Below are positions 5,292-5,319 of a DNA stretch of 8,928 nucleotides, piece after piece; within the stretch, counting starts at the first letter, position 1; every line of letters starts with the position of its first letter. Source of the stretch: a virus (taxonomy: Duplodnaviria > Heunggongvirae > Uroviricota > Caudoviricetes); the IMG/VR virus record IMGVR_UViG_2657245131_000016; one strand, written 5' to 3'. The notes beneath the pieces are model-generated. The model saw only the letters and a program-made list of their open reading frames with translations, was not told the origin of the DNA and made no database searches. The position numbers were made by a program, and so were the translations under genes.

Positions 5292-5319
5292 ATGTTGATT
5301 ACAAAAATGTAATCAACAT
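5292..5319. promoter_or_regulatory. perfect 28-bp palindrome (12-bp arms, 4-bp spacer) upstream of the AcfC-like gene; candidate operator
   Basis: ATGTTGATTACA aaaa TGTAATCAACAT: the arms are exact reverse complements. It lies in the AT-rich region about 165 bp upstream of the gene start at 5484. A candidate -10 hexamer TATAAT occurs at 5419-5424 and another at 5346-5351. Confidence 0.45.

Follow-up and report, generated by a model that had tools for sequence, protein, structure and literature searches.

A probable HprR/CusR-type operator upstream of the adhesin gene paa on a prophage of Shiga toxin-producing Escherichia coli

An inverted repeat lies 165-192 nt upstream of the ATG (position 5484) of the adhesin gene paa in the 8,928-nt stretch of viral DNA analysed here (IMG/VR record IMGVR_UViG_2657245131_000016, hereafter the window). 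The gene paa (adfO, Z2053; 5484-6242, + strand, by the RefSeq annotation of a 100% identical locus) encodes Paa, an AcfC-family adhesin of the periplasmic substrate-binding type, and its homologues carry Pfam PF13531. It is a widely used marker and an adhesion factor of attaching-effacing and enterotoxigenic Escherichia coli. The repeat, ATGTTGATTACA-AAAA-TGTAATCAACAT, occupies 5292-5319 without strand assignment, and its arms (5292-5303 and 5308-5319) are complementary at 12 of 12 positions. The first-pass annotation described a perfect 28-bp palindrome. The arms are indeed exact reverse complements, but the AAAA spacer is not palindromic, and the element is strictly a 12-bp inverted repeat with a 4-nt spacer. 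The accompanying claim that such arms are unlikely by chance in about 9 kb was borne out: in 3000 dinucleotide-preserving shuffles of the window, 0.014 perfect 12-bp-arm repeats with a loop of at most 20 nt were expected per shuffle, and 1.2% of the shuffles had at least one. The window has two, at 5292-5319 and 6362-6385. The repeat at 5292-5319 is real and beyond chance expectation.

The surrounding DNA is that of a lambdoid prophage of Shiga toxin-producing E. coli (STEC). The stretch queried, 4700-6300, is 100% identical to an E. coli O121 chromosome, and 'PPompW' lambdoid prophages of STEC share 99.8% identity over 95% of the window length. The gene order is dicA/dicC-like repressors, replication genes, a DUF1627 gene, a fimbrial-subunit pseudogene, paa, hok/sok, rem and ydfU. 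In the RefSeq annotation the frameshifted pseudogene (4790-5323) runs through the repeat to a TAA at 5321-5323. However, the window resembles intact fimbrial genes only up to about 5282-5285, and its homology to the upstream regions of plasmid-borne acfC/paa genes starts at about 5280. The ends of these two homologies define a junction at 5280-5285 (no strand) between a fimbrial fragment on the left and the paa cassette on the right. Therefore, the repeat is part of the paa cassette, 12 bp inside its left junction, and the last ~38 nt annotated as pseudogene belong to the cassette as well. A short shared ATTCC/ATACC stretch at the junction suggests that it may have arisen by illegitimate recombination. 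A module boundary at the repeat itself, as BLAST had indicated (fimbrial homology stopping at about 5282, acfC homology starting at about 5298), was discarded when the alignment showed acfC homology 15-40 nt further left.

The inner part of the repeat, ATTACAAAAATGTAAT (5298-5313, + strand), is a 6-4-6 inverted repeat that closely resembles the site recognized by the E. coli response regulators HprR (YedW) and CusR. The published box CATTACAAAATTGTAATG, located between hiuH and hprR, is a recognition sequence common to both regulators (PMC9302797; bioRxiv 10.1101/2021.09.09.459708; PMC8249747), and 15 of the 16 core positions agree with it. The 7-bp inverted repeat that is the family consensus, ATTACAAnnTTGTAAT (in E. 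coli CATTACAAAATTGTAATG or ATGACAAnnTTGTCAT), is found at 5298-5313 with one mismatch (13/14). The hiuH element, with 27 specified positions, matches 5297-5327 with three mismatches (24/27), a match seen in none of 200 shuffles. Comparison with known operator consensus sequences, as advised in the first-pass annotation, was thus carried out here and yielded the CusR/HprR box. In addition, plasmid-borne acfC relatives (clade 2) have GAAACAGCCTGG just upstream of the box, as hiuH does, which suggests common descent of the promoter. The CusR box between cusRS and cusCFBA (AAAATGACAATTTTGTCATTTT) shares the 6-4-6 repeat, but its half-sites are TGACA/TGTCA, whereas the TTACA/TGTAA half-sites of paa are of the hiuH type; this intergenic region is bound by both HprR and CusR (PMC8249747). 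Unlike the hiuH/hprRS box, with its 7-bp arms, the site in the STEC prophage lineage has 12-bp arms. The paa site also differs in lying away from regulator genes: it belongs to a prophage or plasmid cassette, where it precedes an adhesin gene.

The similarity includes the promoter layout. The K-12 hiuH and cusC regions were fetched and all promoters were aligned in register. In the window, the box ATTACAAAAATGTAAT is followed by the spacer caaca, a third half-site TGTAAG(gttt) (TGTAAGGTTT), 21 nt and a -10 hexamer TATAAT. The hiuH promoter consists of the box ATTACAAAATTGTAAT, the spacer gctgc, the third half-site TGTAAG(gtta) (TGTAAGGTTA), 22 nt and TATCCT, and the cusC promoter of the box ATGACAATTTTGTCAT, the spacer ttttc, the third half-site TGTCAC, 22 nt and TAAAGT. 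The third half-site of paa, TGTAAGGTT (5319-5327, + strand), stands 5 nt after the box on the paa side and repeats TGTAAT directly, with a period of 11 bp. It is identical at the same offset in the hiuH promoter, while cusC has TGTCAC and the Providencia homologue described below has TGTAAT. The predicted -10 hexamer of paa lies at 5346-5351 (+ strand). With -10 hexamers predicted from sequence, the distance from box end to -10 is constant: 32 nt in paa, 33 nt in hiuH, cusC and Providencia, and 32 nt in both the marine contig L199 and the second box of the plasmid locus L009 (see below). No -35 match was found for the paa promoter, and none is present in hiuH. For lack of a -35, the paa promoter was missed by a consensus promoter scan; such a lack is typical of activator-dependent promoters. 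In the cusRS-adjacent contigs the equivalent of the third half-site is (C/G/A)GTAAT, and for the CopR/LciR family short conserved elements between repeat and -10, located towards the gene that is activated, are known (PMC6989116).

A parallel in biological setting is the LciR element of the Legionella copper island, in which ATTACAAnnTTGTAAT and two short elements before the -10 control the effector gene lciE; mutating any of the four element parts abolished or nearly abolished copper induction, and E. coli CusRS was able to activate such a foreign promoter (PMC6989116). The paa site resembles it in its consensus match, in having short elements on one side that give direction, and in the prospect of a horizontally acquired virulence gene under a CusR-type regulator. 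However, the Legionella regulator genes lie in the same island as their target, whereas the paa cassette carries the site alone and would need host regulators.

We aligned the window with ten plasmid loci of E. coli and E. albertii, whose upstream regions are 73-81% identical to that of the window. The pattern ATT(A/g)CAAAAATGTAATCAA, followed by three variable bases and GTAAGGT of the third half-site, is invariant in all 11 relatives, as is TATAAT at 5346-5351. At 5298-5316, 18 of 19 positions are invariant across the 11 upstream regions, compared with 45% of the whole upstream region and 47% of the third codon positions of the gene. The longest invariant upstream run is 15 nt (permutation p 0.0003), and no other block upstream of paa/acfC is as well conserved as the core. 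By contrast, the outer positions of the left arm (5292-5297) vary among the plasmid acfC relatives, and the number of matching arm positions is 9-10 in close plasmid relatives and 6 in the other clade. Therefore, the perfect 12-bp arms are specific to the STEC prophage lineage, in which O157, O121, a swine strain and the PPompW phage all have the same repeat sequence. The full arms, which the first-pass annotation took as the unit, do not stand as such, and the conserved, predicted functional unit is the inner 16 nt plus the third half-site 5 nt downstream. The Providencia alcalifaciens homologue (67% amino-acid identity) has the box in the form TTACAAAAATGTAAT-N5-TGTAAT, reading CTTACAAAAATGTAAT-tattc-TGTAAT, 22 nt, TATACT, and the rest of its upstream region has no evident similarity in the comparison. 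This layout implies that the unit is made of three half-sites, ATTACA, TGTAAT and (T/C)GTAA(G/T), whose centres are separated by 10 and 11 bp and which keep a fixed distance to the -10.

Public collections were scanned for TTACAAAAATGTAATNNNNNNGTAA, with 19 positions required. Besides the paa prophages, more than 80 matches were listed in unrelated organisms of 17-58% G+C. In the marine contigs L197, L199, L201 and L216 the element is located in a divergent intergenic region, with a response-regulator gene on one side whose product is 62-65% identical to E. coli CusR. The L199 regulator passes NCBIfam TIGR01387 ('heavy metal response regulator'), and in L199 and L216 the regulator gene is followed by a gene for a CusS-like kinase. 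The opposite side carries a small gene, whose product in L199 is Met/His-rich. L197, L199 and L201 include the extended GTTGATTACAAAAATGTAATCAAC, with outer arms that differ, and TTGATTACA/TGTAATCAA arms recur at cusRS-adjacent marine loci. The STEC repeat is identical over 24-26 nt to the operator at marine cusRS loci. Because L199 and the window share a 26-nt identical stretch although the search required only 19 positions, the arm extension may be a stronger site rather than an accident. The architecture also recurs next to acfC itself. In the plasmid acfC islands L009 (631-700) and L014 (from 616), a second box ATGACAAAAATGTAAT lies upstream of a DUF305/YncE-like beta-propeller operon, and in L009, where the layout was read, it takes the form ATGACAAAAATGTAAT-cctta-TGTAAGGTT-21 nt-TAAAAT. 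The same kind of promoter would thus precede this operon on some plasmids, which suggests that acfC and the DUF305/beta-propeller genes may form a small co-regulated mobile gene set.

Other matches from the scan have different neighbours. In metagenome contigs of 27-31% G+C (L159, L169, L176, L180, L191, L220, L232, L235 and others), TTACAAAAATGTAAT-N5-TGTAA occurs about 160 bp upstream of genes for repetitive surface-type proteins of ~1459 aa, and some low-G+C contigs (e.g., L166 and L171) have further TTACAAAA repeats before the motif. In the high-G+C soil contigs L177, L193, L200 and L226 the motif precedes genes for ~1000-aa proteins, that of L177 being beta-propeller/phosphoesterase-like by eye.

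We consider it likely that the repeat contains an operator for OmpR-type response regulators of the CusR/HprR (CopR/LciR) family, and that this operator forms the upstream part of an activator-dependent paa promoter. On the best reading of the sequence, this predicted activator site would place paa under the control of HprSR and/or CusSR, and oxidants or copper probably turn on its expression. In the proposed mechanism, phosphorylated HprR (signal H2O2/HOCl) and/or CusR (Cu/Ag), both encoded elsewhere in the host chromosome, would bind the inverted repeat and the downstream TGTAAGG half-site. The repeat is centred ~52-53 bp upstream of an inferred start near 5358, so the regulator would sit at about -60 to -33, with the TGTAAGG half-site over the -35 region. 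With a perfect -10 in place, it would substitute for the missing -35 and recruit RNA polymerase, and transcription would proceed rightwards into paa through a leader of ~126 nt. Because the TGTAAGG element is on the paa side, activation would be directed to paa. The extra arm symmetry in the STEC lineage probably strengthens the site. Although the window has no regulator gene of this kind, the host cell has the cognate systems at hand: of 5426 complete E. coli genomes, 5414 carry hprSR, and K-12 has cusRS. The first-pass annotation had proposed looking for the binding protein in a lysogen extract. The likely regulators, however, are core-genome two-component response regulators rather than a prophage protein, and the site, as part of a mobile paa/acfC cassette that is also found on plasmids, is not restricted to the lysogen. 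Circumstantial support comes from strain EDL933 in bovine rumen content, where cusC, cusF and Z2053 (paa) were all induced (log2 +3.5, +4.0 and +2.4, respectively; PMC8524897 supplement).

Several observations weigh against this assignment. In the right half of the paa box the inner base is A, in place of the T of the consensus and of the hiuH box. No regulator gene adjoins paa in the window, although the family usually has an adjacent one. In length, the inferred paa leader (~126 nt) far exceeds the hiuH leader (~25 nt), and a second promoter may lie nearer to paa. Position 5420 is polymorphic inside a -10-like hexamer: A occupies 5367 and 5420 in the window (O121 type), and G occupies both in O157, the swine strain and the PPompW phage. 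The A at 5420 converts TGTAAT to a perfect TATAAT, about 60 nt ahead of the paa ATG, and might create or strengthen such a second promoter. In rectum content, Z2053 was induced but cusC and cusF were not (PMC8524897 supplement), so CusR alone is insufficient to account for its expression. A 2026 study of HprR in enterohaemorrhagic E. coli found hprR to be needed for O157:H7 adherence and, in its running text, attributed this to ler and hiuH; that text, the chromatin immunoprecipitation sequencing (ChIP-seq) and RNA-seq tables aside, does not mention paa (PMC13064566). No literature on binding at paa, its start site or its induction was found, and full-text searches for the repeat sequence and for paa/adfO/Z2053 regulation returned nothing relevant. 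Finally, close homologues in the E. albertii chromosome, Salmonella and Yersinia have unrelated upstream regions without the box. The upstream regions of the Citrobacter, Enterobacter and Edwardsiella homologues are likewise unrelated, and the box is absent from L101, L102 and L100 (Enterobacter and Salmonella acfC homologues). From the genes nearby, the acfC family seems to have been rewired to different signalling systems in different hosts.

Four other explanations were weighed; all are disfavoured, and even together they are unlikely. The one that survives best, though improbable, is that the element has no function: a fragment of a hiuH-like promoter would have travelled with the cassette as a relic, and its perfect arms would have arisen by chance close to a recombination junction. 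The cassette is a mosaic with the repeat only 12 bp from its junction, the outer arms are lineage-specific, and the GAAACAGCCTGG similarity to the hiuH region points to common descent. However, a relic would hardly be expected to keep a core far better conserved than the neighbouring non-coding DNA and third codon positions, nor box, third half-site and -10 in register in Providencia, where the rest of the upstream region is dissimilar. A second copy of the architecture also appears to drive the neighbouring genes on plasmid L009.

Somewhat less probable still is an operator for another regulator, such as a prophage repressor, FNR/CRP, a LuxR-type protein (e.g., EvgA) or another OmpR-family member (CpxR, KdpE or PmrA). 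The repeat does contain TTGAT and ATCAA half-sites, and Enterobacter acfC homologues lie beside an EvgS/BvgS-like hybrid kinase gene, with LuxR-type regulators in L101, while the Salmonella homologue adjoins a LuxR-type (GerE) regulator gene. We take the TTACA/TGTAA half-sites to be EvgA-box-like, although the EvgA consensus was not confirmed in the literature, and GTAAT-N6-GTAAG is, we assume, loosely similar to CpxR/KdpE repeats. The repeat is not an FNR site, as the first-pass annotation had already reasoned, because its TTGAT and ATCAA half-sites are 12 nt apart rather than 4 (TTGAT-N4-ATCAA). The EvgA spacer is presumably 2 nt, compared with 4 in the paa box, and as we understand the sites of CpxR, KdpE, PmrA, OmpR, TyrR, Fur and HexR, spacing or orientation does not fit for any of them. 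The element occurs on plasmids that lack the prophage, and Fur has no role in paa regulation (PMC4382993). Any of these regulators would also leave unexplained both the 24/27 match to the hiuH element and the cusRS adjacency in metagenomes. An EvgA/LuxR-type box as such was rejected because the homologues beside LuxR-type or two-component genes lack the motif, and it was superseded by the hiuH match. An IHF site (WATCAANNNNTTR) was also rejected, since its TTR part is absent and Providencia has no WATCAA.

It is very unlikely that the repeat acts as an RNA hairpin, i.e., a terminator, stabiliser or leader element, whether in read-through transcripts of the phage early-right operon or in an ancestral fimbrial operon. 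The window stem folds at -15 kcal/mol (z = -5 vs shuffles) on either strand, its 12 bp and 4-nt loop resemble a Rho-independent terminator, and its position overlaps with the end of the fimbrial pseudogene as annotated. An intrinsic terminator would, however, have a G+C-rich stem and a U-tract, whereas here only 3 of the 12 pairs are G:C and there is no T-run 3' of the repeat on either strand, as stated in the first-pass annotation; a terminator scan of the window did not flag 5292-5319. The stem is not conserved either: in clade-2 relatives it is reduced to 6 A/T-rich pairs that give no stable hairpin (z = 0.3 to 0.7), differences in one arm have no compensating change in the other, and no Rfam match was found at the repeat. 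Since the core is invariant even in these relatives, the conserved function lies in the DNA sequence and not in an RNA stem. Moreover, fimbrial homology ends before the repeat, and the predicted paa start lies downstream of it. The earlier preference for the site of a dimeric regulator over a terminator therefore holds up, with the CusR/HprR-type core, the hiuH/cusC promoter layout, the strong upstream conservation and the unconserved hairpin all in favour of this prediction. Least likely of all is a mobile-element end or recombinase site that moved the cassette, for although homology between genomic contexts begins close to the repeat and a Tn3-family terminal-repeat-like sequence lies at the cassette's other end, homology in most relatives runs 15-40 nt further left (CCAAAC, AAGAGAATAC), no matching copy is found at the other end, no recombinase gene is associated, and at hiuH and cusRS-like loci this element is part of ordinary divergent promoter regions.

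If the HprR/CusR-type box works, paa would be a direct, pathogen-specific target of these regulators, providing a route from the host oxidative burst or copper to an adhesin. HprSR and CusSR of K-12 are seen as systems with essentially one or two targets, and in K-12 screens HprR and CusR bind mainly their own and each other's loci. The type of site is known; what appears to be new is its place before paa/adfO and the predicted membership of paa in the HprR/CusR regulon, which is absent from the searchable literature. We lean, by a small margin, towards a broader view in which the paa/acfC cassette would carry a portable promoter linking a virulence adhesin to HprSR and CusSR, such that neutrophil H2O2/HOCl or gut and phagosomal copper would directly trigger Paa/AdfO. 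Mobile virulence cassettes could then carry their own site for core two-component systems. An oxidant or copper trigger of paa could partly explain the poor adherence of O157:H7 hprR mutants, and the existing O157:H7 HprR ChIP-seq and RNA-seq data are open to re-reading for paa. The sharpening to a perfect 28-bp repeat in STEC prophages might raise affinity or shift the balance between HprR and CusR.

Downstream of the paa stop, a terminator-like hairpin with a T-run (6249-6262, + strand; terminator scan) is likely the 3' end of the paa transcript. The match of plasmid CP113093 to the paa cassette extends to ~6302. Homology to plasmid acfC loci ends there, at the outer end of GGGGCAGCTCACAAAACGGAAAAAATTGTACGCTAAG (6300-6336), which resembles a Tn3-family terminal inverted repeat. 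Sequences ~90% identical to GGGGCAGCTCACAAAACGGAAAAAATTGTACGCTAAG lie within or next to annotated Tn3-family transposases on E. coli and Pseudomonas plasmids, and others occur in unannotated or differently annotated stretches of Xylella and Thauera plasmids. The other perfect palindrome, CCGATATGGGAATTCCCATATCGG (6362-6385; 12-bp arms, no spacer), lies between paa and hok/sok, the latter with an Rfam sok match at 6431-6580. Two perfect 12-bp-arm repeats in one window are very unlikely by chance. Among the matches listed in the plasmid search, only one copy of the paa cassette covers CCGATATGGGAATTCCCATATCGG. At the right end, an Rfam isrC match (RF01387; 8870-8928, 59.7 bits, E = 1e-11) is cut by the window end. 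Near ~8800 the PPompW phage records align as two pieces over 13.4 kb, because they have the Q-tRNA region and an ISEc20 insertion there that are absent from the window. In the 100% identical chromosome the late region is deleted and interrupted by IS3, and the prophage of the window is probably defective.
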